The notes under the pieces: model-generated | What the model saw: only the letters and a program-made list of their open reading frames with translations | Databases searched by the model: none | Told to the model about the DNA's origin: nothing | Shown: piece after piece, positions 5,645-52,285 of the stretch | Layout: each line of letters starts with the position of its first letter | Position numbering within the stretch: position 1 is the first letter of the stretch | Assembly: GCA_965178125.1 (NCBI GenBank) | Contig: OZ237735.1 | Span: 1,178,001-1,242,000, forward strand | DNA from: Bilabrum cf. latius | Taxonomy: Eukaryota | Length of the DNA stretch: 64,000 nucleotides | Direction of reading: 5' to 3' | Program-made: the position numbers and the translations under genes

Positions 5645-8600
5645 ATGGCTGCATGGGGCGACCATAACGTCTACACAAAGCTGTCTTTTTGCGTAAGCCT
5701 TTGCTTTTTATCACTGGTCGCAATGCTTGCGCGCGACGCAAATCCATGGGCCAGCATTCCGACCTCCAGAATCTTGTGCGTCCGCAGGTAAAAGCTCGAT
5801 CGCGGTAGGGCGAAACAGTTGCTTTGTGTGGAAACACACCTGCTCTCGGCGACTACGATGCGGAGCAGGCTGTCCAACTCTACACCACTCCAGAAGACTA
5901 CCCTGTGTGGAAAACACTGCGTCCTGTTGTTGTACCTCGTGGAACAGCAATACGTTACAAGTACATTATTATGTCTGGTGGTCGTCCATCTTACTGGGAA
6001 GGAATTGAAGGGGAGCGAACGGTGGTACCAACGTCTTCACGGATGACCATTGAGGATACCTTTGGCCGGCACGACGACGGTGATGATGACGAAGTCGAGC
6101 AGAGAGCCCCCATCCATTTGTCATCTGGTGCTACTGCAAAGCCTTCGGTTGGCTGGGCAGCGCAGTCTTCTAGCGGCAGACCTGCTGTGACAACCACAAC
6201 TCACGAGCAAGCAGCCCCACAGGCCGAAGGTGCATCACCATGGGCTGCAGCAGGACACTTGCAGCCACAACTTCAGCCATCCTTGGAGCAAACACCAAGT
6301 CCCATGCATGGTGGCAGCCCTGTGGATCGATCAGACGGGGTCGTAGGCCTTCCAGCATCCTTCATGCAGTCGCTCGGAGACATTGGGACGATCGATGCCA
6401 TCCCCGGCGTGGGAGCCACACAGGCCGCGGCTAGTGAGCCAGTGGACGGTACAAGGGGTCACACAGAGCGCAGTATCGAGGATGCAAGTGGCGGCGCCTT
6501 GGGTGCAGGCAGGACACTCGGTAGTCCGCCACACCAGGGAAGCACTGGGGCCGAGGCGGCGGCTGGGTCCAGCCACACTACCCCGGGTCAGACCGCCATT
6601 TCCGGCTCTAGCCATGCAGCGTAGGACCAAGAGCAGGATCCCTAGCCTGCTTTAGACAGGAGTTCTCCGGCGGTAGGACCTCGGGACGGCTCGGCACCCG
6701 CTTCTGACCCGGCCTTCTCCAGCACCCCGCAGCGGTCGAGGGAAGCGGCGTCGACAAGCCGGGACACCGACCCGGAGCCGCACCAAGCAGTGTCCAACGC
6801 AGAGCAGAGTGGATTTGATCAGTCTCCCCCGGGCGCATCAACCCTGGCAGTATCCGCCGGCGGTAATGCCGCAGGGGGCGAGCGGACTGACGCCCCCGTC
6901 TCTACCGCGCAAGCTTCTCCCGCTGCAAAAGCCATGCTTGAGGAACCCGCTGAGAGCCAGAAGAGCAAGATTCGCCGGCTCATGAGGGGCCGCAAAATGA
7001 TATGCGTCACGTACCACCTGCCGGTCATCCTGAGGCGAGCAGCAGGAGGGGTGGGGCAATGGACTGCTCAGTGGGACCCTGACAGCTTCCTGGCTCGAAG
7101 CGATGAATCGCTCGCGGACGACACTGACATGCACTGGGTCGGAGTGGTCACTCGAGAGTGCATGGATCGCGTCACTGCGCGAGAGTAGGCGCGGCTGCGA
7201 AGGCACAGCGTGTCGTCTCACGGCTCGAGCGCAGTGGGGGCTGCGATGGACGCTGCCGTGGACTTGACGGCCGCAGACGGTGGACCCAAGCTGCTTCCCA
7301 CCGTGTCTGAGGATCGGCAGGGCCGGAATCGCTCGCTGTCGCAGACAATGTCAGAGTGCAGTGACGACGGCGAGGGCCCCCCTGACCGCTGGGAGGATGA
7401 AAGCCTGCGACTGAGCCTTGCGGACCGGCGCGGGATCACGAAAGCGCTCAGTGCAATGAAGGTGACCCCGGTGTTCATGGACGATGCTGTGCGCGAAGAG
7501 GCCACCCGCAGAATTGAAGGCAGGCGTATTTTGTAGCGTGGGATTGCCCGGAGCGTGGGAAGCGCGAACGTGGCTGCTGGTGGGTCAGCTGCGGTGCAGC
7601 AGCTCCGCCAGCTGTCCGAAGGACTAATGGGCGGCCCGGTTTCGGTGGGCTGGTCTCCCACCCTAGGGCCGGGCTCTGCTGGCCGCGATACAGGCGGGGA
7701 CTTGGACGGGGGTCCGTTGCCTGGCGCTGCCGTGAGCTCAGCCGCAGACCTGGAGGCAGCTGCAGGTCGCAGCCTCAGTCAGGACCTCTTCGGAGGCCGA
7801 GGGTCTGTATGTGGTAGCGAGGGGGAAGGCAGATACTCTCGTGAGGACGGTGCGCAACGAGCAGGCCAAGCAGATCCCGTAGCCATGGCACGAGCAGTCA
7901 TGGGTGTAGCGCCGTTTGCGGATGGAGATCACGGCGGGTTCTTCGACGACGGCGACTACGATGAGTCCGCTGGAGAGGAAGATGACGACGAGGGGGAAGA
8001 AGGAGGAGAGGACCCGAATAGGGAGCGGCCATCAGGTGCCACTGAAGGCGGTACAAGCGGCCACTCGGCCAGCGTGGCGGCTCACCCCGTTTCTGCCCCT
8101 GCGTCCGACATAGTGTCTGGCTCTGACAGTGGCGTGGAAGCTCCAAGCAGGGCGCCCAGGGCGATGCGGGCGGCAGACCGCCTGTTCAAGCTCTTCAATT
8201 CCTTCTGCGCCACGGTGCTGCGGCCTGCGCTGCACAATATTTTGGACACGGGAGACGACTTTGTCTTTGCCGACGACGCACAGGCGTCGCTCGGCAGCCC
8301 AACCGCCGCGTAGCGGGCACTCAAGACCCTGGATCCTCCTGACAGCGAGTCGAAGATGATTTGGGGCGGGCCGTTTCACCCGGACGCAGAAATTGCGGGC
8401 GATACAGACCCTTTCTCAAGTTCTAGCCACGTGGCAGTTGCGCGTCGTGGATGGCGCGCCTACGTTCGTGTGAACGAGCACGTCGCCAAGGTAGTCCGCG
8501 GGATCGCGCGGTCCGAGGACGTGGTGTGGACACACGACCACCACCTCTGCCTGGTGCCTGCCATGCTCCGCAGGCTGTTCCGGGCGGCTCCATCCCTGAT

Positions 8601-11600
8601 TTACTTTATGCACTAGCCCTTCCCTACTTCTGAGATTTTCAGAACGCTGGCGGCTAGAGAGAGGCTGCTGAGGGGAATGCTCTCTGCAGACATCGTTGGG
8701 TTTCACGCGTTCAATCACGCGAGGCACTTTCTGCACGCATGCAAGCGCACGCTCGGCGTGTCTTTTTCCTCTAGGACTGGAGGTCGCATCGGTATCGACT
8801 GGGACAGCAAGGACATCATGCTCGCTATTTCGCACGTTGGTGTAGATGCCGGCAGGCTCAACAGCCACATGCGCGACCCCGACACAGCTGCCTTTGCAAA
8901 CGAGCTGAGGAAGCGGCACAAGCGTCGAATCGTAATCGGAGGGTTTGATTCTTGCTAGCGACTGTCTGGAGTGGCCTTGAAACTGCTAGCCTTCGAGAGG
9001 CTGCTTGAAGACAACTCCGTGTACCGCCACAAGGTGGTTCTAGTGTAGCGGTGCGAGCTGCAGCACTCTCGCGGTGCTGACTACAGGCGCACTTCCCAAG
9101 AGCTCAAGTATCTAGTGGAGCGCATCAAGTCTAAGTTTGGGCCTGACGTCATTGACTACCAGGAAGCCGTCTCCTACTCTACGACGTTTCGGGTAGCCCT
9201 CTACTACTGCTCGGATGTGCTTGCGCAAGTGCCAGTGCGTGAAGGCATTAACCTGCTGCCTCTCGAGTACGTGTACTGCAGGACACGATGGCAGAACGAA
9301 CGAGAGGAGCTGGACAGAGCAGCGGTACAGGCCTCGGCTGCACAACACCCTCGCCGGCGGAGATCAAGCGAGGGAACAAGAGCATCAGATGCATTCCGGC
9401 GGTCCGGCAGCTCGCCGCACCTTGGCTCTGGTTTTCAGCCGTCCGCTGGTTTGGTTGGACTCCATAAAAGCCGCCCCGGCCCTCGGATCGGGCGCTAGGC
9501 CTGGTCTACACGCGGTCGTCGGGGTGGGGATTTCCCTCGGTCGTTCCTTGAGTCTGGCGGCATTAAAGAGGAGGATGACGAGGATGAGGAAGACGAGCCC
9601 GCTCGGTCCCCTCAAAGCAGCTAGAGAGTCTTTGGATCCACGGCTACTGGCTCTGGGGTGGCTGTATCTGGCTCCCACGCGTCGCTTGCTTCCCAGCAGG
9701 AGGCCCAGCGGTAGCAGAGCAACGGCTCTGTAGCGTCCACCCCCGTACTGCATGGGCAGTCAGTTGGCTCCACCCATGCTGTTGGAGCAGTCGGTGGCAG
9801 TGGCAGCCCAAAGCAGGCCTTTGCTGGCATGCAACCGTTCTCGCTGGACGATGTGTCACAGGGCGAATCGTTGCAGCAGCCTTCTTTTCCTTAGATGCTG
9901 CCCGACCAGCCATACGGAGAGGACGGTGGCTCTGGGGACGCCATGGATGATTCGTTTGAATCAGAAGCTGACCAGGGTCCGGTAGAGACCAGCGATGATG
10001 TCGGGGACATGGGCGACATGATGCAACGATCGGCATCCTTGCCGGACTTGCTCGATGCACAGATCAGCTCGGAGCCGCTTGAGCTGACTGCGCCGCTCCC
10101 GCCTCCACGGCGTGCCGGCTGCTTGGTGCTGAGCGAGTTCTCTACCGCAAGCCACGTCATCAATGGCAGCATCAAGGTGAACCCATTCAACATTCCAGAA
10201 GTCACGAACGCTTTAGACACGGCCGTGCTGATGCCCGCAAGTGAGCGGGCTACCCGGCAGTGGCGAGATTTCTAGTATGCCATGCAGAATCCTTCCAAGC
10301 AGTGGGCCCGCCAAGTCGTGATCGACGTGATTCAAGACAAGGAGCAGCAAGGTGCAGGGGCGTTCCAAGGCCTGGAGGGCTTCAGCCAGTAGAGTCAGCG
10401 GCGCATCACTGTAGGGAACGACGAGAGCTCCGCTGAGCTGGCCAGGCTTGACGTGCCACGCACTGCGGTGAATCTGCAGAGGTCCCGCCGTCGTGTAATC
10501 CTCGTCGACTACGGTGGCACTCTGGTAGAAAGGGAGGGCATTGGTACCTACATCAAGCACGAGTTCTTCGGCAAGAGCCAGGACAGCAGCACAGCCAACC
10601 AGATGTCTACCATGGAGATTCAGTGCCTCAGATACCTCTCCGACGACCCACACACGATGGTTGTCGTGACTACGGGGCTGAATACCTCACAGAAAGAAAT
10701 TGATCGGCTTCTTGACTTGCAGAACATCACCGTTGTGAGCGAGAAGGGTATGCTCATCACCTGGGGGGCGCGTGCGAGGTACACCCCAGCTGCCCGCAGG
10801 GCAACAATTGCGTATCTGCGCAGCCAAGGCCAGGAGCCGACTCAAGACGACGGCGGGCCGGGCCGTGAAGGAGAAATGGAGGGGCTGGCCCCGCCGCTGG
10901 TGCCGCCTGCCGCATTCTGCGAACCGGGTGAGACTCAAAAGTTCATTGAAGCGGGGAGGGCTTAGACCGTAGCTTCCGGTACTCCTCCTGCGACAGGGGC
11001 TGCGTCTGGACGGTCCGTAAAAGGTGCTGCAAATCGCGCAAGGAGCCAATCCTACGGGAAGCAGCTCAATCCCGGTCCTGAGTCAGCCTCTCCGGGACGA
11101 GAGCGGCGTACTGGTCGTCTTTGGCTCCCGCTGTGGCTTGCAGTCAGAGATCCTACCCCGAGCTAGACCGGTTCAGGGGCTGCATCACCCATGGTTCCAG
11201 GCGTTGCCGGCATCGCAGCGACCGCAGCAGACAAGGCTGCTGTTTCAGGCATGGGTCGAAGGCAGGCAATGCTCGCCCCCGAAAACATGGTGGATTGGAG
11301 AACTCTGGCGAGCCGGGCGAAGGCTGTCATGGATGCTTATATGTGGAGGGTGAACGGCAGCCGAGTGCGGGCGTACCCATACGTTGTCGCGTGGGACTAT
11401 CGTGATGCAGACCCAGAGTGGGCATCTAGCCAAGCCGCCTTCCTTGAGGCAGACCTGCGGGCTGGGCTCAAGTCGCAGAGGGTGGGCATACAGAAGCGTA
11501 GTTCCAGGATCGAGGTGTTCCCGCTTGGGCTTGACAAGGGCGCGATCGTTGATGCCGCCCTCACTGTGTGGCCATGTGCCGACTTCTTCCTTGCAGTTGG

Positions 11601-11955
11601 CGACGACCAAGCCGATGAAGACGTCTTCCGTCGCCTCATGGACGTTTTATCCGAGCAAGATGATGGCGATGACCGCCGCCTTGTGACACCCTCAGCAGGT
11701 CGCAGTGGTACACCCGGGAGTCAGGTCGAGCCACCTGGCATCGTTCCAGCGGGGTAGGAGCAGAAGAAAGCTTCGGGACTGCGGACTCTGTACACTGTGG
11801 CCGTAGGAAGAAAGCGTACTAGCGCAAGGTTCTACGTACAAAGCCCGAGGGAGGTCAACTATGTGGTTCGTGCGTTGGCTGCAGCCCTGCCACAGAGGTA
11901 GATCACACCTTCAGTCCGTGTTGCTGCGCGCGTTGGTGATGCAGTCGAGTCTTGA
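5645..11955 (+). CDS. TPS: CBM20 + trehalose-6-phosphate synthase (GT20) + trehalose phosphatase (HAD) fusion, ~2070 aa
   Basis: Exon 1 is 5645-5692, followed by an intron 5693-5787 (gtaagc...cgcag). One frame then runs 5788-11955 to TGA with 19 in-frame TAG (hand count) and no TAA/TGA. CBM20: FCVKARSR*GETVALCGNTPALG..YPVW..IRYKY. GT20: WTHDHHLCLVP, FMH*PFPTSEIFR, LSADIVGFH, EGINLLPLEY, LVLSEF, VNPFNI. HAD: ILVDYGGTL, DKG, LAVGDDQADEDVF, VGRKRTSARFYV. Confidence 0.93.
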
Positions 11956-28120: not shown

Positions 28121-31100
28121 TCACGGCTGCTCGGCTGGCTCCTTGACCGACTGCTCGGCTGGCTCCTTGACCGACTGCTGGCCAATCCTAGAGCTGTCCA
28201 GCTGCAGTTCAGGCGATTCGGCGCCACGGCTACCCGCCCGACTCACCCTCCCGCCGTGTTCCTTGGTTGGCGTGCTGAATCGGGTGAGATCCAAAGCATC
28301 ACCCCTCGCGACACCCGCCTCTGGCATACCATCCGGGGACGCTAGCCGCAACTGCTCGGGTGCTGCATCTCCCTCGTGCACAGCGGTGCGAGCTGGCCCT
28401 GTTGCCCCAAGGATGCTGGTCCCTGTGGTTCTCTCCGGGTCGGCCGAGAGCTCCGACAGCTGGCTGCCAGCCTCCTCTGGCTGCTCCTTGCCAGCCGCTG
28501 CCTCTGCGACATCGCCACCTTGCCTCCCCGCAGGCAGCTCCCCCTCCTCGGCGACCAGCCCCGCGGCCTTGTGCCGCTACCTGCCCCGCCACACCGCCGC
28601 CCTCCGCTCCAGAAATTGTAGCTGCGCCTCCAGCTCCTCGCGCAGCACCGCGCCTGCCTGAGCCTCCATCACGCGCAGCACGGCCCCGGACACGAACGTG
28701 ACGTAGTCGTGCAGGTCGAGGTGCGAGGAACCGCTATTGCTCCTGGATCGCTTCCGCAGAACCACGGAGGAGCCCAGCTCGGAGGCGGGGCTTGACCCGG
28801 CTGAGGCTCCGCTACCTCCTCTCGACCGGCCGTACGACGGAGACCTTGATCCGCCATGACGTAGAACGCTGCTGGTGCTGCTGGTGCTGCTCGAAGCCTC
28901 AGCGCGGCGCGAGGCCCTAGTGTCCAGAAACCGAGCCAAAGCGCTCGACTCGTTGGCATCTGGCAGCAGCACGCCACTGTCGGCGCGCTCCTGCTGCCAA
29001 GCAGCTCCGCTCCCCGAGGATGCGTCGACGCCAGCAGCATTGACGACGGAATTGCCCGCAGGTTCGATTGCAATCGAGCTGCCACGAGCCCCACTTGCAC
29101 CTCTCCCGCCCCCATCCGGCAGGCTGGCCCCGTCACCCAGTGCCTCCTCCTCCACGTCCTCGCTAATCACGTCTAGCAGGTCACGATCCCGCGCACGACG
29201 TAGAGACATGACGCCCTCGAGGCCTCTGCGCGCCTCCGAGCGCCACGCCTGCAGCTGCTTCCTTGGTGGCCTGGGGTCCAGCTCGGTTGACCCTGCCATG
29301 GACAGGGCGGGGTCCCAGTGCAAGGGGGATCGCCGTGACCGGGCCAGCTCAGAACCTGCGTCTCGCCGCAGAACAGCAACAAGCTCTGCAAACCGCTGGG
29401 TCCTCCGGCGCACGATGAACCTGCACGCGTCCTCCACCCGGGTCGCTCGAATGAGACCGGCGACCAGCTCGACCACCGCAGCGTCCTCGGCGTGCTCCTC
29501 GGCGGCGCGCACCTTTGTCTCGGCAGCACCACCGGATGCTGCCCTCAGCTGCTGGTCCAGCGGCGGGGCTGCAGCGTCGCGCTCTAGGACTCGCCGCACG
29601 GCTGGTGAGCAGCGCAGCAGGCGGGTGCACCTGCGCAGAAACCGCCTGGACGGCCCGTCCTCTGTGCTGTCTACCACCAGCACTCCGTAGTGCTCAAGCA
29701 TTCTCCTCACCTACTTCAGCCCTCGGCCGGCGAAGCGCACGAGCACTTCAAACTGCGTGACTACGTTGGGCACCCCCTCTCCGAGGATCCGCGCTAGATC
29801 CTCTCTCCTAGCTCTGATCTCGGGCGCGTCGTCCCAAGGAGGCAGCTCGTCCAGCTCCGCCTGAGCCAGCGACGTGATGCGGTGGGACACCACTGAAGCC
29901 TCCACGTCTTGCGTGCGTATACGGCCGCGCAAGCTGTTCATCGCCTCCTGTTCCGCCTATGGGTCCGGCGGTTTTTGCTGCGGCAAGTTCTGCAAGAGCC
30001 ACAACGACCTAGATGTTGCGTCGCACATGATCTGGTACAGCCTGCCGGCGCCATGGGGAGATCTGTCCTTGCCTGCAGCATGCATCCCACTTGAGTTCGG
30101 GCCAGTCTGCTACACACCGTCTGCCGAGAGGAGGCTTTGCGATGCGCTCCGGCCTGCGGCCTGCAGCTCCGCCACTGACGGGCTTCCACCTCCCCTGCCT
30201 TGTCCACTGTGTGCTCCCACTGCGCCGTAGCTACCGCGGGACAGGCTGCCCGCAGATGACAACGACCCTTGGCGGGATCTGCCCAGTGCTTCTCCGCGTC
30301 TCGCAGCTACGCCCGAGTGAGGCGCGCCAGCCTGCCCGTTCTATGCAGGTGCCCCATGGGCAAATGGGCCCGCATAACGCTGTGTCGCACTGCTGCTGCT
30401 GCCGCCGGCTCCATGCTGCCCGACTTGGCGGGTCGCGGGCGGTCCAGACTACGAGGATGGCGGCAGAGCAGCCGGCGGATTGGCAGACGGACTCGGCGCT
30501 TTCGCCGTGCTGGAAGACCTCAGTCCGAAGAAGCCGGCAATCGTCCACTCCTCGTCCTGCTCCTGCCTGGCACCAGCCCCCCCGCTGCCAGCCCCTGGGA
30601 TAGCAAGGGACGAGACACCCCGCATCTACTGGCGAGCACCAGCACCGTGCCACGTCCCGGCTCGGGCTGGCACTCCTGCAAGCCCACCTACCGGCATGGA
30701 CCCAAACCGTGCACCCGCCATCCGCGCGCCTATCCTTGGGGCACCCACGCCAGACGACGCCGCACCATGCCTGAGCCCCGATCGCTTGGGCCCAGCTGGC
30801 AGTAAGTGAGCATGGCTGCCAGCTGGGTGACCCTGCCCGTGGTGTGGGTGCTGCACAGGCCTGGCAGCATATCCATGCCCCTACCCCTACGTATGGCCCA
30901 GTCCATATCCCCACACGTGAGGTGCATCTCCACGGCCCGCGCCGGTGCCACCGGGATGATCCATTCCCGCTGGCCGCCCGTAGGTTGATGGTGTATGGAT
31001 ACTGCCTTGTTGAGGCATGCGATAGGAGCTTACTCTCTGGATTCCACCCGCTGCCGCAGCCCCAGACTCCGAAGCAGCGACAGATCCGAGCCCGACCGAC

Positions 31101-31471
31101 ATGACGCTTGCGGACCGAATCGAGCCGCCATCGGACGTACCACTTTTCCCTTTGCGACGTTTGCGCCTGCGAGAGCTCTTCTAATGGCTGTGCAAATTTC
31201 TCTCCTAAAATCGGCGAGCGGTTTCCTGTTCGTACTCTTCTGGCGAGATTTTGCCTTTGCGGACAAGCTCCAGCAAGTGATCTGGCAGCTGCGGTAGCGC
31301 TGCTAGAACTCCGGGTGCATTCGCTGGCGGTAACGATATCTTGGCCCGTCTCCGCCTTCGCCTTTTGTGCTTCTGTGAACCTGTTGTGCTGCTGGTTACG
31401 CTGCCATGCGCTGCGGGCGAAGCGGCAGCAGCCAAGTCGCCGGATACCATGCCCACTTCACCCGGCACCAT
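28121..31471 (-). CDS. Hypothetical protein, ~1110 aa
   Basis: ORFs 31205-31471, 30887-31102, 30626-30856, 29711-29941, 28577-29710 and 28121-28381 are one frame; the large gaps checked contain only TAG. TGA at 28121. No recognised domain. Confidence 0.65.
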
Positions 31472-31727
31472 ACTAGACGACGGGCCGTCCTAGTCTAGAT
31501 GCTTCTGAGGAGTGTGGTTGGTGAGCTGAGCTGGGGCATCCTCCCCGATTGAACCGAAGTCAAGCTCATCAGCACCAATGCCACCACCCCGAAGATTCCC
31601 TTGTCTCCCCTCTTTGATCGGTGATATCCCCGGGATACCTGACATTTATAGAAATATAATGCACATATCACGAGAATTGACAATCTGACATTCGTGCAAG
31701 GTTTCAACCACAATAAACGGAACGCTT

Positions 31728-34700
31728 AAATACAGAAATACAGAAATACATTGTTGGGTAAAGATTCCACAAGCACCCAGATGCACCGTTGCCCCCGAAG
31801 GAGTTCGAGTGATCACCTGAATCCAGAGGAGTCCTCAAACAAGGACTACAAGACCCCCGACCCTTTCAGGCCAAAGGCCCCCCAATCTCAGCCTACACCG
31901 CCGAGTCCCCTTTATTCGCCATCAATGTGGTCCCCCACAAGCCCTCAGCCTGATGCCTTCACAGGGAGAAAGCATACAGGTGCGGAGCATGTGCCCGGCA
32001 CAAAGCGCGGTCCAGTCCCACATCAGGGTCCCCTGCCGGGACCCACCATTTCCTCCTCCATGACCGTCTCTGCGTCTCACGATCCTTCAGAGAGGCTAGC
32101 ATGCACGCGCTCATGCCTTTGGCCCATTGCCTCTCTATGTCCCTTAGCAAGCCGTGGGGCTTAAACATCCGTCGCTGTAGCCGAGCGTTCGCATTGGTTG
32201 CCGCTATCAGCTCTTGCGTGGCCGTGGCGGCAAGAGCAGCCGCCGCATCGCCTCGCATCCACTGCCTGCACGTCAGCTACTCCTGCTAGCGCAGCTGGTT
32301 CCTGATCACCTGCACCACTCGGTTGGCCAGCTCCTTGACAGCTGTCCGTTCCGATGACCGCGCAATCGTACGCTCTATCCGAGTGAGTGCGTCTTCGACG
32401 ATTGGCTTGGCCCTGCTGGTGCGCTCCAGCTTCTCGTCCCAAGGGTCCTGAGCGAGAGCTGTCTTCGCCCATGCTTTCCGGAGGGAGGCAGGGGACCTCC
32501 CTCTATTCTGATCCGCATCATCGGGTTGCCACGGTCTCGTTCCGGCATGATGGTCATGCTCGGCCCGCTCCATCTGCTCTACCGCGGTGCCCATCACTTG
32601 AAGGTTGGGCGTGCCCTGTTGCGGGTATTGTCCAGCTCGGATGCGCAGAATTCGTCTTCCTTGGTGGCCGTATTCCTGCACCACCGCTGCTGTTGGCATG
32701 GCTCCTGGTCCGAAGGCATACCGTCCCTTCGTTGCGTACCGGTTAAGCATGACCACTCCGAGCGCAGCTCTCTCCCGGTCCCAATCCGACAGTGCCGGAT
32801 CGTGCGAGCATCCCAGGCTCAGGCTTGTGAACGATCGGTCAGCAGCTCCGGATTTGGATTTCCTCCACTTTGTGCCTTTTTTTGCAGTCTCCTGGCATCC
32901 CAGCCAGTCCTTCGCGTCATCGATCCGGTGGGTCCACCCTGCCATCTTGATCCTGAATCCCAGTGCCAGCGCGGCCCCGAGTGGGCCTGTCTGTACTGGT
33001 GGTCCCTGCAGGAATCGGCCCTGGTGGATGAACCTGGCCGCAACATCAAGGCCCTTCTTCGAGGGACACTCGATCAGGTCCAGCAGGCCCATAGCAACAC
33101 GCCCTGCTGCCGATGCCGTCAGCAGCTCAGTGTCCATCGCAAGGTTTGGCACGTATCGACCGCCCATGGTGAAGGGCCTTACCTGTGTCGATCCGCTGAC
33201 AATCATCCAGCGCGTATCCAGCAGGAATTTGTCCAGCATCTTGAGGACTTCCAGGTTCAGTTCCATCCCGTAGAAAACTTGGGAACCATATCCTAATCCT
33301 GACAAGGTGTCCCATCCTGTTGCACATGCCGCTGCCTCTGCTCCGTAGAATGCACTCGTGATTGCTCCTGCATGGAGCAGCTGGGCGTGCAGGGAGACCG
33401 CCCAGTTGCCGTTCACCGCCGCTCGTGTGATGTCCCTGGCCGCCCGGTACGCCATCGCAATCCTCCTGCGTACGTGGGGTGCCATATCAATTACCCAGAT
33501 GTCTCTCGCCTGCGTCAGCCCAGCTACTTCATCTGGGCTGATCCGTACTGGTTGGGTCGAAATGAGTAGACCGAGGTACAGGTAGGATGAGGCAAGTGGG
33601 ATGGTCCACTCCCCATCCGTCTCTCCCGCGTCCGCTGCTCTGCATGCGACGCCCTCTGGCATGTCCCCAGGAATTGAGTCCCGAGCGTAGCCAAAGGCCA
33701 TGATCGCTGTCTTGGTTCCCTGGCCCGATGCTGTCAGGGGCTTGATTCCCAGCTACATGCCCGCAAGTGCAAACAGGCTCTTGACTAGCTTCATGACCGC
33801 CACTGCTTCGTTCCAGTTCGACGTCAGTGCCACGTAGTCGTCTGCGTACCCGACTTGTCCACATTCAACGTATCGTCCGGTGTCGGTCACGATCCTTTGA
33901 TGGTGCCCGTGCTGGAGCCTCTCTTTCCGCAGCGTTTCCAGGAGAACCCCCATCAGTACCAGGAAGATGGTGGGAGACAGAATCTCGCCCTAGGGGGTGC
34001 CCGCCGTCTTCTGCACTCTGGTAGAGACCCTCCTGGTGAGTGGGTCTCGAACGCGGATGGCCACCTGCATGCGGGCCATGAGAAAGCGGACCGTCTGGCG
34101 TCCCCATCCTTGCTCCGTCATGATGGCCTCGATGATGTTCCACTTGCAACTGTCAAATGCTCCTTTGATGTCAAAGAATACCAGAAAACCTCCAGCACCC
34201 CTTCGTTGGGTAATCCATTCCATCACCGCTGAGTAGGCCTGCTGGCAGTTCTTGCCGATGCGAAATCCGGCCTAATCCTGGCCGAAGAGTCCGTGGTTTT
34301 CGCAGTACCACATGACCTTCTGGTTTGCGATGGTGCTTACGACCTTCGAGAGAGCCGAGGTCCAGCATATTGGCCTGAATTCGTCGACTCCTGTGACTCC
34401 TGTGCCCTGCTTGCGCTTGGAGACCGGCCGCATGAACCCCTCCTGAAAGGCCTCAGGCTGAATCCCCGAGAAGAGTGTGAGATTATAAATGGCCCTGAGG
34501 AGGTCCAACAGAGCGTCACTTCGCCGCAGACACCCGTCCTCCTCAGAGCATGGCTAGCATTTGGTCAGCAATTCCGCCCTGATCCCATCAGGTCCCACAG
34601 CTTTGTTGTGCTTGAGCTTGTCCAGTGCTTGATCCACCTCTGCGTTCGACCTGCAGAATAGGTTGAGCGGTGTCGCTGCCCTGGGCATGTGCGGCGCAAT

Positions 34701-37360
34701 CCTGGCCATAAATCCGCCCACATCCGCACTTCCATTCCCACCTGCGTGAGAGAGCTGCTGTGCGTGTGCCTCTAGGATATCCTCGACGGCCGTAAGCACC
34801 TCTCCGCCTAGGTTCGTGATTGGTTCCAGTCCTGGTGCAGCTCGTTGCCTTCTAGAGATTGCATCAGCGATCTATCGGTGGGCTTCCCTCGGACTTGCTG
34901 TTCCCAGCATGTTCCGCAGTGCGTGGCCCGTCCTGCGTGCCCCTCGCTCGGTGGTCTCGAAGACAGCCCGTCGATCATGGTCCAGGTTGGCAAGGAGCAT
35001 CGTCCAGTACTCCTGTCCCTCATGGGCCTACTGGTTCACCTCTGTGCTCCCCCAGAGTGTTGCCTGCATCCGTCCATCTAGCCCCCGCTGTCGCCCTTCG
35101 AGGCGCAGGCTGGCTCGGCGATGTGCAGCCAAGCATGTTCTGGCCTCTGAAAGAGCTTGTTCCGTGGTTGGTCCCGCGATAAGGGCCTTGAGGCTGGCAT
35201 GGGCTTTTCCCCACGTTTCAGCCCATCTCGTCCGTGCCGCCCAGGTCCTGCGGTGGCGCTTGCGTGACGCTTCCACGTGCCCGGCCTGGCCGGTGTTTGC
35301 CATTTGTCGGCCTGTAACAGTCTCGGCTGCTGCCGTGAAACATCCTTGCAGAAGCAGTTTGACGGAGGACACGGCCTGCGTAACCGCTTGCCCTGCAGCC
35401 TCTCGGTCAGCCGAGGTTCCCGTCGAGCTTTTGAGGTCGCGAATTGCGTCGAGCACACAATGAGTGATGTCGCGGACTGCACTTGTAGCCTACCCGAATT
35501 CCTTGACGTAATAGTCCCAAACCAGGCGTTCTTGCTGCACATGCATGTCGGACACCCGTGAGTACGCTGCCCTGAAGGGGGCGTCATCGTCCTGCTCCGT
35601 TGTTGCTGGGACTGCAGTTGCTCGCGTTGCCGGGTCCTCCACTTCTGGGACTGTGACCAGCAGGTCTGCAATCACCCCCGTGTGGTCTGAATATGTGCCT
35701 GGCTCTTGAGCCACTTCACTGGACACTAGCTGCAGCTGCGCAGAAGTGGAGATGCAGATGGCATCCAGTGTGTTGCCTCCTCTGTGCGTAGGCCCGCCCC
35801 CTGCAGGTGCTCGGTACATGTCGATCATGCCCATGTCGTTCTCCAGATACCAGTCCATCTGACCAGCTCCCTCTTGGTCCCGGGCCTACGTCGGGTTGAA
35901 GTCACCGGTAACCACAAGTCGGTCCCTGGTGAAATTGCCTGCCGGTCCTTGACTCCGTCGCTGTCCAAGGGTCAGCTGGGGATCGACCACGAAAGCCTTG
36001 CCCAATACTGAGCCCCTTGTCTCTGCCCCGAGGGCAGCCCCTTGCGGTGGGTTGTAGCAGGCTATCACCGTCAGCATGCGTCGGTCGTGGTGCAGGACGT
36101 CACATACGAGGCAGTCCGGCGCATCCAGGTCATCATCTCCCATGTCTGCCCACCGTCTCAGTACGAGGCCTGAATCTCGTTTGACGGCGACGCATACCCC
36201 GTGTGGGGCTCCGTTTCCTGCCCTCGTCTCCATCGCGTACAGGTCCGGGACGTCAGTGACGTAGCGTCCTCTAGCATCCTGTGTCTCCGTGCCAACAAAC
36301 ACATCGGGCATCTTGGTCTCCGTAAGGGCAACCTCCATCGCTTCGAGGTTCCCTTTGCGTCCCAGATTTTTGGTTGCAATCCTGACGTACTTGGGCGGGG
36401 TCGTGTCCATGATCCTGATCTGATCCCAGCCCCCGCGAGTACCTTGGACGCCTCGTGGCTGATGTGCCGTGCTTGTCCCGGGGGCGACTAACCACACAGA
36501 TTCTCGGTCCCCCACTACCGCATTGCGGTTATTGATCCAGGGGAAGCACTCCGGTATCCAGGTCCTGTCGGTCCTCTGCTCATCCGTAAGCATCACCCGG
36601 AGAGCTCCAAGCAGTTCCGCCCCGGTCACTCCGTCCTCCCATTGGTCTCCTGGGCGGACTGATAGGACCATGACCGGTTCCTCGTTCAGTTCCCCTCTCG
36701 TTGACAGCGTACGCACAACTCTGGCATCCGCATCTCCTTCCTCCTCCCGTTGCTCAGGTCGCAGCACCAGGCAGGCGTGCCTCCGGGACCCGTGTCCACC
36801 CGGCGGATTGATTCCTGTAGGGATGAAGACCTCACAGTGGGTGCGGGAGATGGCAATATTCATCGTGCCCTGGATCGCTTGGTCATCGGTGGCGTCCGAG
36901 TTGAGTCGCTCACACCAGTTGGCAAGGCTGGTCCCCTCTTTGTCGGCTGGGTGGAGTCGCACTGAACCCCCTCGCTGCTGTGCCAGGGCCATCACTGACA
37001 GTGTGAGTCCTCGCAGGCTAAGCCCGTGGATTCCTTCCCCTTCCTCGCCAAAATAGGTGCGGAGTGTGTGCATGATGGTGGAGCTGGGGTCTAGGCCAGC
37101 TAGAACGGCGAGGGGGAGCTACGCGCATCCCTGCCAGCCTAAGTGCTCTGGCGGCCCGAAGAGGTTACCCGTGCCTACCACGAGTGGTTCAAATGCATCG
37201 TACGGAGTAGTCAGAAGCGCAGTTCCTCCGCCGCCGGGACTCCAGAGGCACTCGGCCACACTGTGTGGGATCGACGTCAGGGTTTCCTGGAGGGACTTGC
37301 TTCCGGACGAAAATGAAAAACCGTGTAGCCCCGAGTCCATTCTCATACTCAGCGGTAGAT
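31728..37360 (-). mobile_element. Non-LTR retrotransposon (APE endonuclease + RT), apparently intact
   Basis: The 3' end carries a (TGTATTTC)n octamer tail starting at 31728. The element contains a single APE-RT ORF and is bounded by CGCTT at 31723-31727 and 37361-37365. Confidence 0.9.
31959..37346 (-). CDS. LINE polyprotein: N-terminal region + AP-like endonuclease + reverse transcriptase, ~1795 aa
   Basis: APE: IATKNLG, PDVFVGTET, GVCVAV, VIACYNPP, VVTGDFN, TLDAI, SDH. RT: NKAVGPDGI, FRPIC, D*AGFR, FFDIKGAFDS, GTP*GEILSP, YADD, YLYLG. One frame from ATG 37346 to TGA 31959 with at least 11 TAG and no TAA/TGA found. Confidence 0.9.
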
Positions 37361-37365
37361 CGCTT

Positions 37366-37572
37366 ATACAGAAATACAGAAATACAGAAATACATTGTTG
37401 GGTAAAGATTCCACAAGCACCCAGATGCACCGTTGCCCCCGAAGGAGTTCGAGTGATCACCTGAATCCAGAGGAGTCCTCAAACAAGGACTACAAGACCC
37501 CCGACCCTTTCAGGCCAAAGGCCCCCCAATCTCAGCCTACACCGCCGAGTCCCCTTTATTCGCCATCAATGT
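37366..37572 (-). mobile_element. 5'-truncated second copy (3' UTR and tail only) of the same LINE
   Basis: Identical by eye to 31728-31928 apart from a slightly longer octamer tail. Flanked by CGCTT at 37361-37365 and 37573-37577. Confidence 0.9.
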
Positions 37573-37753
37573 CGCTTGCAGATCTACACAGTGACGTGCA
37601 TTTTCACTCGACGATAAAACCAGACCAAACTCTATTTCTAGTCTTTTCAGTCCCCCAATATGAGATACGCTGGTGTGATCGCTGCAGTAGTTGGGGTATA
37701 TTTCACGTATGGGTTTGACATGCCTGGCCACCCCGGGCGAATAATCATCAATG

Positions 37754-41958: not shown

Positions 41959-44900
41959 TCACTTGCCCGCTTTGCCACTCGTAGCACTGGGTGGGAGGAT
42001 CGGGCACCCTCTATTCCCGAACTTGAACCAGCGCACCTCTCTGTTGAGCGCCACGTTGCCCGCGATGCCGTCCAGCTCCGATCGGGCGGACGCAAGCGCG
42101 GCGTCCCATGAAGTCCCGGTGAACACGACCAGGTTGAAACCTCCAGCCACTGCCGTTCGCTGCAGGTAGTGGCGCCCCATGGCGAGAAGCAGCCGGGTGC
42201 AAGACGTATCCGTACCGCTGGTTTCCTCGATGCATCCCTCTACCGATTTAAGCACCTCGGCTGGCCTGTGCGCGTCAAGCCATTTGACGGCGCACGCCGA
42301 CCTGCGCAAGAGGCCCATTTGTGCCTGCATCCTCAGTCGGTCCGCCTTTTTGACTCCTTTGATTGCATCGTACCAAGGTCCTTTATTTTTTGTCGCGATG
42401 CCGCGTAGGGCCTTTTGCAGACTTACGATGTGGTCACGCAACCTACTGTCGATGTTGCCCGTGTACCCAATGTATTGCTGCGAGGGGAGCGGATCGAAAG
42501 CGAGGACACATAGGAGCGATGAAGCAGCAGACGGGGCGCACCCGCTCTTCCTGTACGAACGGAGGGGGGACCTCACCAGCAATCCATCGCCGATTCGGAT
42601 CAAGATAAAATACGCAAACGCGTCGTCCGTGAGCTCGGAATCGGCCGGCTGCCTCCCAGCCTGCGGTTCCAGCTTTTGCATCGCGTGGCGCACGTGTATC
42701 TGCGATCGAAACGGGATGACAGATCCGTCGGCCCTGCACAGCACTACGCGTAGGCTGCCGCTTCTCGCGATGCCGACTAGGTCCAGCAGGCACAGCCAGG
42801 CGTCGCACGTTGCGGCGAATCGAAAGTCGTCCGAGCGACCCGTGGGTTGTGGTCCAGACGAACCCGACGCCGCCCCCCCTGCTCCTGCTGGTGCATCGAG
42901 TCCGTCCTGCGACTCGACGACCCAGAGCTCTGAGTGTTTTCGCAGCACGCGCCCTATGTCATCGCGCAGCGCAATGAATGAGTCAACCAGCTCCTGCAGG
43001 GCCTGCGCCGGAGACACCGGCTCGGTGCTCTCGTTCCCATTCCGGACCAAAGCATCGTACACGGCATCCGACGGTCCTTCCACGCGTGCATCGCCCTGGA
43101 GGCCTCTTGCAAACGACAGGGTGGCATACCCACGTGCGTGGAGCGTGCTCTAGGCCCCGAGCACCGTAGTCACGGCGAGCTCGGCTCGCTCGACGGCCTG
43201 CTCGGGCACGTCTGCTGAAACGAGCACGGAGCGCGGTGTGTTTTGATCCGGTGCACTTGAGGCACACGCGGCCGAACTAAGCCCGCCCGACGCGCTGCCC
43301 GGACTCGGGCTCTGGACCCCAGGAACGCTCGCGAGCAAAGCAGCGAGGTCTGCTGAGGATGTCATTGCCGCTAGGGTATTTTTGAACGCCGCGAGTGCCG
43401 GTACGAAGCGCGCGCACGCCAGAGCCCCACACGCTCCCGTCCCCTACTGTGCCAGCCGTCTCGCGATTTGGATGACTTCGTCGAAAGCACCACTGAATTT
43501 TTGCCCCACGCGGCTGCCCTTGAATTCGCCTTGGAACGATGGGTTGGCGGCCGCTGCCGCGTACCTGCTTGCGCTCAAAGCGAACTGCCGCACCCGTGGC
43601 TTGCAGGCCTCGGGGAGTAGCAGGCCGCACACGAGCTCGGCAACTCTGACAAATGTGTCGGCTCTGTTGAGATGAAGTGCTTGCCCTTGCAGTGTCTCGT
43701 TGAAGGCAGCCGTTTGGTTTTCCTTCCCCTTCGCTTCGCTCCGCGTTAACTGCGTGATGTCCACCGCCGCTCGGGCCCCGAGCACCCCTCCATGTTGGTG
43801 TGCCCGTTGCCTAGCCAGAACTTTAGCTCGCAGCACCGCCTACGTAGTTGCTTGCAATCCCTCTACCTCATCAAACACATCCACTCGATGATTTTTCCCG
43901 CATCCCCGATCCTTCTCGTCGAACCGAAACAAGCCCTGGCCTAGCCTGGGCCCGCAGACTGCATCACCCGCGAACGAAGCCAGCACTAGCTCCGTCGAGA
44001 TGCCCCGCTCCCCGGAATCGTTCAATCTTGTCGCAAAGTCTCTCAGCTTCCGCATGCTGACAGTCTTGAAGTTTTTAAAGGCATCCTTCTCCTCTGTGGT
44101 GGGCGGCTCGGCATCGTGCTGGTGACTGAGCATGATGTCGAACAGCGTTGCCCTAAACGTAAACCTCCTAAGCATGCACACGAAGGCCCGGTCCAGCTCC
44201 ATTGGCTGGGTTTGGATGCGACCATTACAAGTAGCTAGTGCCCGCGTTTCTTCGTGCTCGATTCGAGCGCCAATCTCCAACTTGTGCGGGGCGTACTACG
44301 CCGGTTGAATCGGCTCGAAGTCTTGGGAGAGGGCGTGCATCGCTCGGGCACTCAGTTCAGTCCTTCCGATGTGTTTCAGGATCGGTGGGCAGTCCGTTGC
44401 GCACGGCTTACGATTCAGCGATTCCTGCATCTGCTGTTCCCGCTCTCGTCTCCATGCCGCAACACTTTCCTCCTTTGTCCGTTTCTGGCGAACCGTCTTC
44501 GTCGTTGCCTCGGCTGGGGTCGACGCTCGCCTGCGTCTCGGCCTCAGGTTCCGACCTTCTTGCACCGCAGCATTCACTGCAGGATTCCCCGCCGCAGCCG
44601 CGCTTGGCAGCCCCTCGAGAACCGGTAGGCCGGAGTGGGCTTTGCTGCCAGAGACTGCGACAGCACCGGGATCTCCAGGGTCGGCACCTGCTCTGTCATC
44701 GTCACCAAACCCGGTCATCAGATCGTCCGCGTTGCCCACTCCCTCGTCGCAGTCGTCCTCGAACCCGCCCCCCACGCCGCCCATGTCCTCTGGCTCAAAG
44801 TGCTGCCACCCCGCCATCGAGTCTGGCTCCTGGCTAGGCATCTCGTCATCGGTTGAAGAGCTGTATCCGGGTAGAAGTTCAGGTATAAGCTGGAGAAGCT

Positions 44901-46458
44901 GGTCTGGCTGGCCTCCATTCTCGATCACAAAGCGTCTCCAGTACGCGATCGCGTCCTCTATCTTGGTGCAGTTGTACTCGGCCTGCAGCGACGCCTCCCG
45001 AAACAGATGGATGCTTGCAGCGTCCAACATGGGCTCCTCCTCATCACCGGCTCTGTCGTCGTCATCGACGAGCGCAACCCCGTGGACACTCTCGGGTGCA
45101 CCAGACCCCGTCTCAGGGGCTGCGGCTCGGTCCGAGTCGCTTCCACGTTCACCGCTTTCGCTGTGGCGCCTGATACCGTCTCTACCTTCATGTCGCCGAC
45201 GTCTGCCCTCTTCCTCCCCCGATCTGTCGTTGCTGGTGCCGCTGCTAAGAGGCCCCGCAGTCAGGGAACCGCTAGAGCCACCAGCATCGGTACCAGGCTG
45301 GGCAGCACCATGGCTCGAGCTATCGGCGCGACCATCCGCGCCAGAGACGCCAGCATAAGCACCAGGAGTGGAGCAAGCAGCAGTACGTCCACCAGCCAGG
45401 ACCCAGGCCGCGTCACCGGCACTCGGGTCGCCAGCACCAGCACCGGGAATGGCGCCAGCTGCACCAGCAGCACCACGGTCACCGGCACCGGCCAGGGCCG
45501 CCTCTTCCCCACCAACGTCTGACCCTGGCTGCCGCCCCCGGCTTCTCAACTTTTGGTCCAAGACCACCCTCATGCGCATCTCCCGAAAGGATGGCTTGGA
45601 TCCGCTGCCGCGCTACTCTTTCTCCCGCTATAGATCCTTTGCTAGCTCTCGAGCCCTCCTGGCGCTGTCCAGGTCCTCCTCTGAGGGGCCCTGCGGGTCG
45701 TACCTTCGACCCCCGGTTGCCCCTGCAAGCTTCGCAGTCTCTTCCAGCAAATACTTCGACTGGTAGTGAAGGCACAGCGAACCCTCCGGATCGGTCTGGA
45801 GCAAAGAGTACCACAGCTCCGAATCTTCGGCGTCACAGAGCTTTAGCCGCTTGCACATGTCATCGAATGCTCCGATGCATAGGTCCGGAACTAGACGCAT
45901 CCACTCAGTCATTTGATACACGCCCGACGCCCGGAGGCGCTGGTCCTAGAGCTGCAGCTTCTCGTCGCACAGCCCCACGACGGTCATCAGCACCTGCTTG
46001 GCCGCTCCTTTGCTCTGCTGGATCGCCTGCCATCGCTCTAGCTTTCTCGCGGTCTAGTCTTCCAAGCCCGCCCGCCTGTTGGTCTCCCCAAAGGCACTCC
46101 AGTCGTTCGTCACCCACCCAGTCAAGACGGTGCTCAAGTACCCGCGCGCCGGGCGAAATCTAGCACCAGCGGTGGCAGCAGCTTGCTCGTGGCCGTCCGA
46201 AGCTAGGTGTGGCGCGGCAGGAGACCAAGGGGCAGCACAGCTGGACGGATTTGCTGCTGCTAGTGCGCCCTCTCGGCCGCTCTGGATGGTCACTTTGGCA
46301 GTGGAACCCGTCGTCTCGACCCCAGAATCCGCGTCATCGACCATGCGCGCGGCACCAGAACCGAGAGCAGGAAGCGGCCTTGGGGTGGGGCTGCCATGGC
46401 TCTGAATCGACCCATCCTCGGAGGCATCTTCGTCTACCGATGCCCACTGCGACACCAT
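41959..46458 (-). CDS. ~1500-aa protein with C-terminal GIY-YIG (SLX1/UPF0213-like) nuclease motif
   Basis: Seven track ORFs (46054, 45628, 44296, 43840, 43444, 43150, 41959) lie in one frame separated only by TAG. TGA at 41959. Motif: LCVL..QQYIGYTGNIDSRLRDH..ATKNKGPW. Confidence 0.7.
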
Positions 46459-46994
46459 AGTTATAGCGTGAAAATAGTTTATAGCGAAAGGTGTGGCGAG
46501 GTGCGTTGCGATGGCACAGCATTGGTTCTTACATCGAGACCCCATTCTTCGTCAGACCCCCAGTACTCTGTACGCGGGCTGGCACCGGGAGAAATTTGAG
46601 CAAGGCCCTGCGAGGCGTGTTATCACGGAGTAAAGAGCCGTGGTGTGTTTGGCTCCCGAAGCGCCGTATTACCCCATCTACAGCGATGGCCGCGGCTCAC
46701 CACTCTCTCGTCCATCGAAGATGATTGCGTTTGACACAAAATCGGTACGGTCTGGTCAGTTGTTCCAACGCAGTGTCCCTGAGGCCGATACAGATCGTCA
46801 CCGCCAGGACCTTTGAGAATCCGAATTGAGCTTTGAAACTACACGCAATAAAATATCAGGAACCTGCTCGCCAGGAATCATTTCGACTGTTTGTCGGTCT
46901 CCGAGCACTGGACCGCGCTGAATCAGTGCCCTATCCGGTACATTCGACCCGCATAGTTCCTATTGGTTTGTTGTCTTGACCGTATCAGCGCTCC

Positions 46995-49805: not shown

Positions 49806-52285
49806 TCACTTCATGGAGGCTGCGTCTCACTTCATGGAGGCCGCGTCTCACTTCATGGAGGCCGCGTCTCACTTCATCCAGAACGCGTCTCACTTCATCG
49901 AGGCCGCGTCTCACTTCATGGAGGCTGCGTCTCACTTCATCCAGGCCGCGTCTCACTTCATGGAGGCCGCGTCTCACTTCATCGAGGCCGCGTCTCACTT
50001 CATGGAGGCCGCGTCTCACTTCATGGAGGCTGCGTCTCACTTCATGGAGGCCGCGTCTCACTTCATGGAGGCCGCGTCTCACTTCATGGAGGCCGCGTCT
50101 CACTTCATCGAGGCTGCGTCTCACTTCATGGAGGCCGCGTCTCACTTCATGGAGGCTGCGTCTCACTTCATGGAGGCCGCGTCTCACTTCATGGAGGCCG
50201 CGTCTCACTTCATGGAGGCCGCGTCTCACTTCATGGAGGCCGCGTCTCACTTCATGGAGGCCGTGTCTCACTTCATGGAGGCCGCGTCTCACTTCATGGA
50301 GGCTGCGTCTCACTTCATGGAGGCCGCGTCTCACTTCATGGAGGCCGCGTCTCACTTCATGGAGGCCGCGTCTCACTTTATCGAGGCCGCGTCTCACTTC
50401 ATGGAGGCCGCGTCTCACTTCATGGAGGCCGCGTCTCACTTCATCCAGGCCGCGTCTCACTTCATGGAGGCCGCGTCTCACTTCATGGAGGCCGCGTCTC
50501 ACTTCATCGAGGCCGCGTCTCACTTCATGGAGGCCGCGTCTCACTTTATGGAGGCCGCGTCTCACTTCATCGAGGCCGCGTCTCACTTCATCCAGGCCGT
50601 GTCTCACTTCATGGAGGCCGCGTCTCACTTCATCCAGGCCGCGTCTCACTTCATCGAGGCTGCGTCTCACTTCATTCAGGCCGCGTCTCACTTCATGGAG
50701 GCTGCGTCTCACTTCATGGAGGCTGCGTCTCACTTCATCGAGGCTGCGTCTCACTTCATGGAGGCCGCGTCTCACTTCATCCAGGCCGCGTCTCACTTCA
50801 TGGAGGCCGCGTCTCACTTCATCCAGGCCGCGTCTCACTTCATGGAGGCCGCGTCTCACTTCATCCAGGCCGCGTCTCACTTCATGGAGGCCGCGTCTCA
50901 CTTCATCGAGGCCGCGTCTCACTTCATGGAGGCCGCGTCTCACTTCATGGAGGCCGCGTCTCACTTCATCGAGGCTGCGTCTCACTTCATTCAGGCCGCG
51001 TCTCACTTCATGGAGGCCGCGTCTCACTTCATGGAGGCCGTGTCTCACTTCATCCAGGCCGCGTCTCACTTCATCCAGGCCGCGTCTCACTTCATCGAGG
51101 CCGCGTCTCACTTCATCCAGGCCGCGTCTCACTTCATGGAGGCCGCGTCTCACTTCATCCAGGCCGCGTCTCACTTCATGGAGGCCGCGTCTCACTTCAT
51201 GGAGGCCGCGTCTCACTTCATCGAGGCTGCGTCTCACTTCATGGAGGCCGTGTCTGACTTCATGGAGGCCGCGTCTCACTTCATCCAGGCCGCGTCTCAC
51301 TTCATGGAGGCCGCGTCTCACTTCATGGAGGCCGCGTCTCACTTCATGGAGGCCGCGTCTCACTTCATGGAGGCCGCGTCTCACTTCATGGAGGCCGCGT
51401 CTCACTTCATGGAGGCCGCGTCTCACTTCATCGAGGCCGTGTCTCACTTCATGGAGGCCGCGTCTCACTTCATGGAGGCTGCGTCTCACTTCATGGAGGC
51501 CGCGTCTCACTTCATGGAGGCCGCGTCTCACTTCATGGAGGCCGCGTCTCACTTTATCGAGGCCGCGTCTCACTTCATGGAGGCCGCGTCTCACTTCATC
51601 CAGGCCGCGTCTCACTTCATCCAGGCCGCGTCTCACTTCATGGAGGCCGCGTCTCACTTCATCGAGGCCGCGTCTCACTTCATGGAGGCCGCGTCTCACT
51701 TTATCGAGGCCGCGTCTCACTTCATCGAGGCCGCGTCTCACTTCATGGAGGCTGCGTCTCACTTCATGGAGGCCGCGTCTCACTTCATCCAGGCCGTGTC
51801 TCACTTCATGGAGGCCGCGTCTCACTTCATGGAGGCCGCGTCTCACTTCATCGAGGCTGCGTCTCACTTCATGGAGGCCGCGTCTCACTTCATGGAGGCT
51901 GCGTCTCACTTCATGGAGGCTGCGTCTCACTTCATCGAGGCTGCGTCTCACTTCATGGAGGCCGCGTCTCACTTCATCGAGGCCGCGTCTCACTTCATGG
52001 AGGCCGCGTCTCACTTCATCCAGGCCGTGTCTCACTTCATGGAGGCACGCTTCTCACTTCATCCAGGCCGCGTCTCACTTCATGGAGGCCGCGTCTCACT
52101 TCATCCAGGCCGCGTCTCACTTCATGGAGGCCGCGTCTCACTTCATCCAGGCCGCGTCTCACTTCATGGAGGCTGCGTCTCACTTCATGGAGGCCGTGTC
52201 TCACTTCATCCAGGCCGCGTCTCACTTCATCCAGGCCGCGTCTCACTTCATCCAGGCCGCGTCTCACTTCATGGAGGCTGCGTCT
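49806..52285. repeat. 21-bp tandem minisatellite, ~118 units
   Basis: Consensus GCGTCTCACTTCATGGAGGCC with recurrent variants (ATCGAG, ATCCAG, GGCT, GTGT, TTTAT). One 22-bp irregular unit near 52046. No spacers. Confidence 0.97.

Follow-up and report, generated by a model that had tools for sequence, protein, structure and literature searches.

The long interspersed nuclear element (LINE) described here inserts at a fixed distance of 21 nt from a motif in the host genome, in one orientation and with a free sequence at the cut. It was found in a window of 64,000 nucleotides of Bilabrum cf. latius (GCA_965178125.1, contig OZ237735.1, positions 1,178,001 to 1,242,000), where one copy occupies positions 31728 to 37360 of the minus strand; the family to which this copy belongs is called family A. 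The fixed distance, the single orientation and the free cut site form the core of the analysis, and this core is held with high confidence. The explanation preferred for the whole, namely a LINE that is docked at a host promoter-type element and cuts at a measured distance from it, is given about an even chance of being right.

The extended target motif, AAWNNRCACRYWAY, is present upstream of the 5' junctions of the copies and in one orientation. The 44 junctions examined are those that scored best out of about 145 candidates. The motif was found no more than 45 nt upstream in 36 of them; on the other strand it occurred at 0 of 44, and at 46-90 nt away again at 0 of 44. In the shuffle control the mean was 1.95 and the maximum 8 over 1,000 shuffles, and 2.0% of the window segments match. 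The pattern was settled before further junctions were fetched, and 15 of the 19 junctions fetched afterwards carry it. In families C-F, which are related to family A, the motif was near 3 of the 9 single junctions examined. The loci L005/L032 and L079 hold antisense insertions at the same base of a family-D 3' untranslated region (UTR); these are one family-A copy together with short 3' ends of A/B type, and they lack the usual motif.

A strong motif is present in 36 of 42 junction pairs, and in 25 of these 36 the target-site duplication covers offset 21, counted from the first C of the motif. The duplication starts at offset 21 in 20 of the 25, at offset 20 in four and at offset 18 in one, where its edge is blurred by the Ts of the tail. 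This offset was first noticed and then scored on largely the same sites. No base is preferred at offsets 8-26 from the motif, and the longest word shared by the two junctions measures 5-7 nt in 26 of 40 pairs. Independent evidence lies in empty paralogous sites (L116, L128, L130, L146; L137; L147), where the duplicated word is single and stands at offset 21; in these loci the motif sits inside dispersed host repeats, which have been struck repeatedly. The motif survives the insertion. As it is left intact, later copies hit the same base and form tandems, which are split by the same word in the window, L002, L024/L025, L026, L029/L011, L052, L076 and L089. The window tandem includes a mini-copy of 207 nt, and the site is composed as follows, all features lying on the minus strand.

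31723..31727, minus strand: 3' copy of the 5-bp target-site duplication, 78 nt ahead of the ATG of the host open reading frame (ORF) 28121-31645
31728..37360, minus strand: 5'-truncated family-A LINE copy, equal to nt 2842-8473 of the longest copy (L059, 8,473 nt) and 99.2% identical to it
31728..31958, minus strand: 3' UTR, ending in the (TATTTCTG)n octamer tail at 31728-31748
31959..37346, minus strand: remaining ORF of 1,795 codons with 11 TAG read as Gln, residues 942-2736 of the full polyprotein
31962..33479, minus strand: thumb and mostly helical C-terminal region, model pLDDT 61.6
33750..34388, minus strand: reverse transcriptase (RT) core (YADD), with TAG for Gln at 34272-34274, 33990-33992 and 33753-33755
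35640..36407, minus strand: APE-type endonuclease, Pfam Exo_endo_phos E=0.007 (below the cut-off), dN/dS 0.09
36408..37346, minus strand: internal domain of about 310 residues, Cys and His conserved in families A-C, dN/dS 0.22
37361..37365, minus strand: middle copy of the 5-bp duplication, separating the two tandem copies
37366..37572, minus strand: 207-nt mini-copy of the same family, made of 3' UTR plus octamer tail and adjoining the long copy on its upstream side
37573..37577, minus strand: 5' copy of the 5-bp target-site duplication
37591..37604, minus strand: host target motif, a loose fit to AAWNNR-CACRYWAY with its core's first C at 37598, weight-matrix score 13.2

The window motif stands 21 nt before the target duplication. 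In the mini-copy, 201 nt match the 3' end of the long copy at 100% identity, and from the geometry of the insertions it was probably the later of the two to arrive at this site. A reading of the 201-nt repeat as a terminal direct repeat, that is, a long terminal repeat (LTR), was ruled out, since the repeat is the tandem mini-copy and is absent from other copies. A first-pass annotation of the window had passed over the mini-copy, the three copies of the duplication and the upstream motif. It had correctly described one frame of 1,795 codons from 31959 to 37346, free of internal TAA and TGA, as well as the octamer tail; the frame closes with TGA. It had also taken the element to be intact, which does not hold: in longer copies elsewhere the same frame runs 941 further codons upstream, and by comparison with these the window copy is truncated at about 37360, its Met1 being residue 942 of the full polyprotein. 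What had appeared to be an N-terminal extension of some 310 residues is an internal domain, the second of two Cys/His regions, and is without a Pfam, PDB or usable fold match. Targeting of tRNA genes was rejected, as ARAGORN found no tRNA gene in the window and 29 loci; Rfam gave no match across five loci.

The motif is also a feature of the host genome in its own right. Across 48.6 Mb it was counted 803 times, against 119 for its reversed control, an enrichment of 6.7-fold. For 41 unselected motif sites, the ORF on the 5' side of the motif starts away from it in 19, ends toward it in 6 and is lacking in 16, while the 3' side has no bias (13, 17 and 11). These sites come from 40 loci, which followed the order of the list; two sites at a contig start, two obtained earlier and a cluster of nine were passed over. 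At the 42 insertion sites the 5' side gives 27 away, 6 toward and 9 with none, and at random intergenic controls 97, 134 and 69. Against the control, the gene orientation is significant for both the unselected sites (p=0.0013) and the insertion sites (p=2e-5). Upstream of 54 host genes, a strong motif lies on the antisense strand in 9 and on the sense strand in 2, compared with 7 of 300 random segments. The motif is thus associated with the upstream regions of host genes, which in most cases are read from the other strand, and is probably a promoter element. A local cluster of motifs is present at G000:C1:1878304-1880896. In the 3' ends of families F (L084-L086, L088) and E (L083), words of the 3' UTR resemble the reverse complement of the motif, in the orientation that is found ahead of host genes.

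It is proposed that the retrotransposon particle docks on a host protein bound at the motif, in the way that TRE5-A docks on TFIIIB (PMC5911963); such docking is slightly favoured. The first nick would fall on the bottom strand, 21 nt from the first C of the motif, and the second about 5-7 nt further, the order of the nicks being that of the standard model of target-primed reverse transcription. Synthesis is primed at the target from the octamer tail and mostly stops early, as the anatomy of the copies shows. The insertions sit head-to-head with the genes and outside the probable promoter, and copies may even, speculatively, be transcribed from the adjacent promoter.

Several observations weigh against this explanation. 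The motif is absent at 8 of the 44 junctions, including that of the only full-length copy, and since some targets are paralogous repeats, the count becomes 31 of 39 when these are collapsed. The scripted duplication test was missed by 11 of the 36 motif sites; of these, two have a 6-nt duplication at 21, two have the duplication at the first tandem copy, and three have a 5' junction at or before 21 without a duplication. The window site itself is not head-to-head, as the ORF on the 5' side of its motif ends toward the element; it belongs to the six exceptions among the insertion sites. A strong motif lies within 500 nt of only 9 of the 54 host genes, and genes were called with a codon model that is crude. 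Finally, the one-base precision is tighter than the 44-54 bp window of TRE5-A and fits direct recognition equally well.

Such direct recognition is a serious contender, to which we give somewhat less than an even chance. Here, a protein of the element would read the motif itself and cut at a fixed distance, and the link with genes would follow from the motif being a word already used by the host. The one-base spacing and the single orientation speak for it, and about 1,100 residues of the polyprotein without an assigned function leave room for a reader of DNA. There are parallels as well: R2Bm depends on a 13-bp motif located at -34 to -22, with no more than one additional base of spacing allowed (PMC10499050), and in the ingi clade upstream motifs are credited to the elements' own endonuclease and tandems are split by one duplication (PMC3820030). 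However, searches of the polyprotein turned up no DNA-binding domain, be it a zinc finger, Myb or another type, and the enrichment and gene orientation of the motif at element-free sites suggest that a host protein occupies it.

The RT matches Pfam RVT_1 (E=2.4e-17), with R2 and L1 ORF2p as best matches in PDB. The APE domain falls below the Pfam cut-off for Exo_endo_phos in both family A (E=0.007) and family F (E=0.00069), and is strongly conserved, with a dN/dS of 0.09. The copies have a common 3' end with a simple-repeat tail, variable 5' truncation, short target duplications and no LTRs. Judged by these sequences, the element is an APE-type non-LTR retrotransposon, that is, a LINE. Its clade was not placed. 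In a quick RT tree of 76 rows, which held no named clade references and whose library rows were the top 70 of 125 usable, six host families and two environmental near-copies form one group (SH-aLRT 96) that is separate from 68 other RTs. The RT is 25-34% identical to the nearest RTs outside this host group, and a word-based search for homologues of the RT region among proteins of 1,504-4,788 aa gave none in 5,395 candidates.

The genome search gave 41 matches from 33 scored of the 145 candidates. Family A stands at 98-100% identity and family B at 84-86%. In 15 of 15 family-A loci the frame stays open as far as the common stop; in family B, 2 of 3 loci are broken. Because the copies are so alike and their frames open, a young, recently active family A is supported, as the first-pass annotation had supposed. 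Between families A and B, dN/dS is lowest in RT and APE (0.09) and rises through the C-terminus (0.16) and the middle domains (0.22-0.26) to 0.41 in the membrane-like region. In all, six related families occur in the genome and all read through TAG; four more distant ones have RT identities of 57%, 46%, 27% and 24%. Copies of family C (L074, L075, L076, L081 and L082) share an extra block of 500-600 nt in the 3' UTR, and one copy has a further 1.1-kb insert that is also found in L089.

The longest copy, L059, measures 8,473 nt between duplicated target words and holds one ORF of 2,736 codons with 20 TAG, which begins 35 nt into the copy; there is no separate ORF1. Its first 300 nt are reached by this copy alone among 4 matches. 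Its 5' end (L059:9800-9933, minus strand) has an A-run followed by near-perfect palindromes, with the start codon among them, and folds into stacked hairpins (z=-6.5); no Rfam match was obtained for it. Another repeat was observed about 4 kb upstream of the full-length copy (L033:6860-7800, G000:C22:778459-779399); it recurs on C14 at 100% identity and in three other places at 79%.

The predicted polyprotein starts with a hydrophobic, signal-peptide-like stretch and has hydrophobic peaks at 302-320 and 398-416. Then follow a linker rich in RG and in Q/P, two Cys/His regions, the APE, the RT and a helical tail of 500 residues. The Cys/His pairs conserved in families A-C are Cys670/His929 and Cys1015/His1111. 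Family F, with a frame of 2,955 codons and an N-terminus known from one copy, likewise has a hydrophobic start, then a membrane-like helix and then basic residues. By their motifs, the Cys/His regions may be OTU- or papain-like proteases, a label that Pfam, PDB, folding and profile comparison left unconfirmed. For both domains, Pfam gave no match and the PDB sequence search nothing significant; comparison of families A-C with E/F by hhalign was not significant; the AlphaFold model of the region failed (pLDDT 33.8) and was not used; and a profile search with both domains gave one match, a near-relative of 154 aa, among 8,000 scored.

The C-terminal region gave nothing significant in the PDB sequence search, and Foldseek on its model returned no match at E<=0.001. 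The model best matches R2 proteins, though weakly (Z 7.2, root-mean-square deviation (rmsd) 7.2, 390 aligned), and with VIA-align the values against R2 chains (Z 7.0-7.2, rmsd 6.4-7.2) are inside the background range. Neither an RNase H-like sheet nor a zinc knuckle was seen in this region by Pfam or in the fold of the moderate-confidence model, in agreement with what had been noted from the window at first.

Speculatively, the signal-like and membrane-like segments at the N-terminus would tether the polyprotein to a membrane along with its RNA, and the part with endonuclease and RT would be set free by the Cys/His domains. A new LINE lineage may then be pictured, with one-base promoter targeting at protein-coding genes by measuring and cutting (motif at -27 to -14, any nick sequence) and, instead of ORF1 plus ORF2, a polyprotein that is anchored in a membrane and processes itself. 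This full picture is rather doubtful. The membrane-like N-terminus comes from hydropathy, with the first 200-270 nt known from one copy, and the protease identity failed every test that was run. A search of largely open-access literature found no direct precedent for a membrane-anchored LINE ORF.

The first-pass annotation had made much of the TAG codons of the window ORF, proposing a long-resident element that is adapted to, and locked into, the host's code. TAG is indeed used in core RT motifs: the codon at 34272-34274 (Q1025, DQAGFR) aligns with Gln in 132 of 139 homologues, and that at 33990-33992 (Q1119, PQG) in 134 of 140. Each of the 11 TAGs is kept in all aligned family-A segments, with counts of 11/11, 12/12, 16/16, 17/17 (three sites), 18/18 (two), 21/21, 39/39 and 40/40, in which a few overlapping loci are counted twice. 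Three contigs from the sequencing run X1 span 9 of the 11 TAGs unchanged; X1 is 'probably DNA' and does not count as proof of transcription.

Between families, however, the sites change. At the 11 family-A sites, family B has CAG or CAA at 7 and TAG at 1, while the other 3 encode a different residue, and at 6 further sites family B has TAG where family A has CAG; only 3 TAG sites are common to both. TAG makes up 11 of the 93 Gln codons of the window ORF and 20 of 146 in the full ORF, compared with 343 of 2,067 for 30 ORFs of the host; by Fisher's test, p is 0.25 for the window ORF and 0.42 for the full one. Since its share equals that of the host and its sites are changeable between A and B, TAG in the element is a neutral synonymous codon in ordinary use of the host code. 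A special adaptation, with code-locking as a notable feature, is therefore very improbable. TAG in the core RT motifs of family A and the reading through TAG by all six families could be cited for it, but the corresponding RT stretch of family B is free of TAG, and the matching share and the few shared sites go against it. Of the locking, what stands follows trivially: the 20 TAGs of the full ORF would stop a standard-code ribosome, and the element would fail in a standard-code host. Similarly, long residence is kept, with the six TAG-reading families as better evidence for it than TAG use itself. Two checks that the annotation had suggested, a comparison of TAG share with host genes and an RT tree, thus gave a match to the host and a grouping of the families.

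The host genes follow the same code. Neighbouring host ORFs in the window also require read-through of TAG, and the code is seen across the window, for example at 5746-11955. In the host trehalose-phosphate synthase, 2 of 8 scorable TAGs coincide with columns where 113 and 114 of 120 homologues have Gln; of the others, five are at variable columns and one at a column with Ile in 87 of 118. TAA is kept as a stop, being terminal in 5 of 30 long host ORFs, and TAA also closes the family-E ORF at the C-terminus that the families have in common. By these alignments the host nuclear code has UAG for Gln and UAA for stop. The named nearest relatives of the synthase are stramenopile proteins (45-49% identity), which suggests a stramenopile-like host. 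The same codon assignment has been published for the fornicate Iotanema spirale (PMC5304391), from which the host differs by the stramenopile-like affinity of its synthase. The literature search found no stramenopile with this code, and no direct precedent for a genetic code acting as a barrier to the transfer of transposable elements.

Two further explanations are weaker still. If insertion were random, or merely biased by AT content or chromatin, selection might have retained copies in promoter-side intergenic DNA; the genome is gene-dense (about 75% coding) and the insertion flanks, at GC 0.47, are AT-richer than it, but selection cannot yield a one-base offset, an orientation of 36 against 0, or repeated strikes at the same base, as seen with tandems and paralogous repeats, and we regard this as highly improbable. 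The idea that C-to-T decay or assembly errors produced the TAGs of a dead copy is refuted for practical purposes: TAG is one transition away from CAG, but in the comparison proposed at the outset no family-A segment has CAG at these sites, all 15 frames are open, the RT has a dN/dS of 0.09, and host genes use TAG at conserved Gln columns.

Some other observations were made in and around the window. At 49806-52285 there are 118 copies of a 21-bp unit, 92% alike and open in several frames. A 99-nt in-frame GT..AG stretch at 42478-42576 (minus strand) is likely an intron in ORF 41959-46551; it is skipped by contigs of the sequencing runs X1-X3, which are only presumed to be RNA, and kept by X6. 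About 55 kb left of the window, two frames have 10,394 and 4,287 codons when TAG is read as Gln (L103-L107, G000:C1:1078005-1122601).

Site choice by APE-type LINEs is usually ascribed to the endonuclease, which reads the bases at the cut. In the present element it is set by a motif 14-27 nt away, with one-base precision, and not by the cut sequence. If a host factor is the dock, the safe-site strategy of TRE5 and Ty3 at tRNA genes would be extended to protein-coding promoters. If the element reads the motif itself, it would be a natural split of DNA recognition from cleavage, relevant to LINE-based tools for gene insertion. The insertions also point to a likely promoter element of a protist that has been little studied. 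A LINE that targets protein-coding promoters was not found in the search of largely open-access literature.

Among known LINEs, the RTE and CR1 groups have a short 3' UTR with a tandem-repeat tail and heavy 5' truncation; RTE elements have a single ORF, and the CR1 group has a separate ORF1 before the APE-RT ORF. The present element is like RTE in its single ORF and short-repeat tail and differs in the length of that ORF (2,736 aa) and its membrane-like N-terminus. It differs from CR1, as the longest family-A copy has no separate ORF. Protease domains are known in NeSL/Utopia (Ulp1; PMC4640811) and, as OTU, in Ginger1 and Helitron (PMC2836005); they belong to elements with a restriction-like endonuclease or to DNA transposons, whereas here the Cys/His motifs are N-terminal to the endonuclease and their protease identity is putative. 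PMC9940879 and PMC13269885 offer nothing specific for the comparison.

The ingi clade of trypanosomes, including L1Tc, is similar in having a conserved pattern upstream of its insertions and tandems separated by the target duplication alone. Its duplication is of 12 bp and its pattern reaches the nick (TTTTxxxxxA^A; PMC3820030). An RNase H domain is a further trait of the clade. In the present element the duplication mostly measures 5-7 bp; the motif stops 13 nt short of the nick, the nick itself has no set sequence, and the motif is associated with the starts of host genes. R2Bm also has an upstream motif whose fixed spacing sets the nick, a 13-bp one at strict spacing, as well as a single ORF and a fold match to the C-terminal half of this element that is weak and within the background range (Z 7.2, 7.0). 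In R2Bm, however, the bases at the nick are required too (PMC10499050), the endonuclease is restriction-like and the target is ribosomal DNA. The present element has an APE and hundreds of dispersed targets, and a required nick sequence of the R2 kind was not found, with no base preference at offsets 17-26.

A precedent for docking is TRE5-A of Dictyostelium, which inserts 44-54 bp upstream of tRNA genes, in the opposite orientation, and binds TFIIIB. Both are APE-RT LINEs of compact genomes that insert at a set distance upstream of a gene and opposite to it. TRE5-A has two ORFs and a zinc finger (PMC5911963); the element described here has one ORF, protein-coding neighbours and an offset set to one base.

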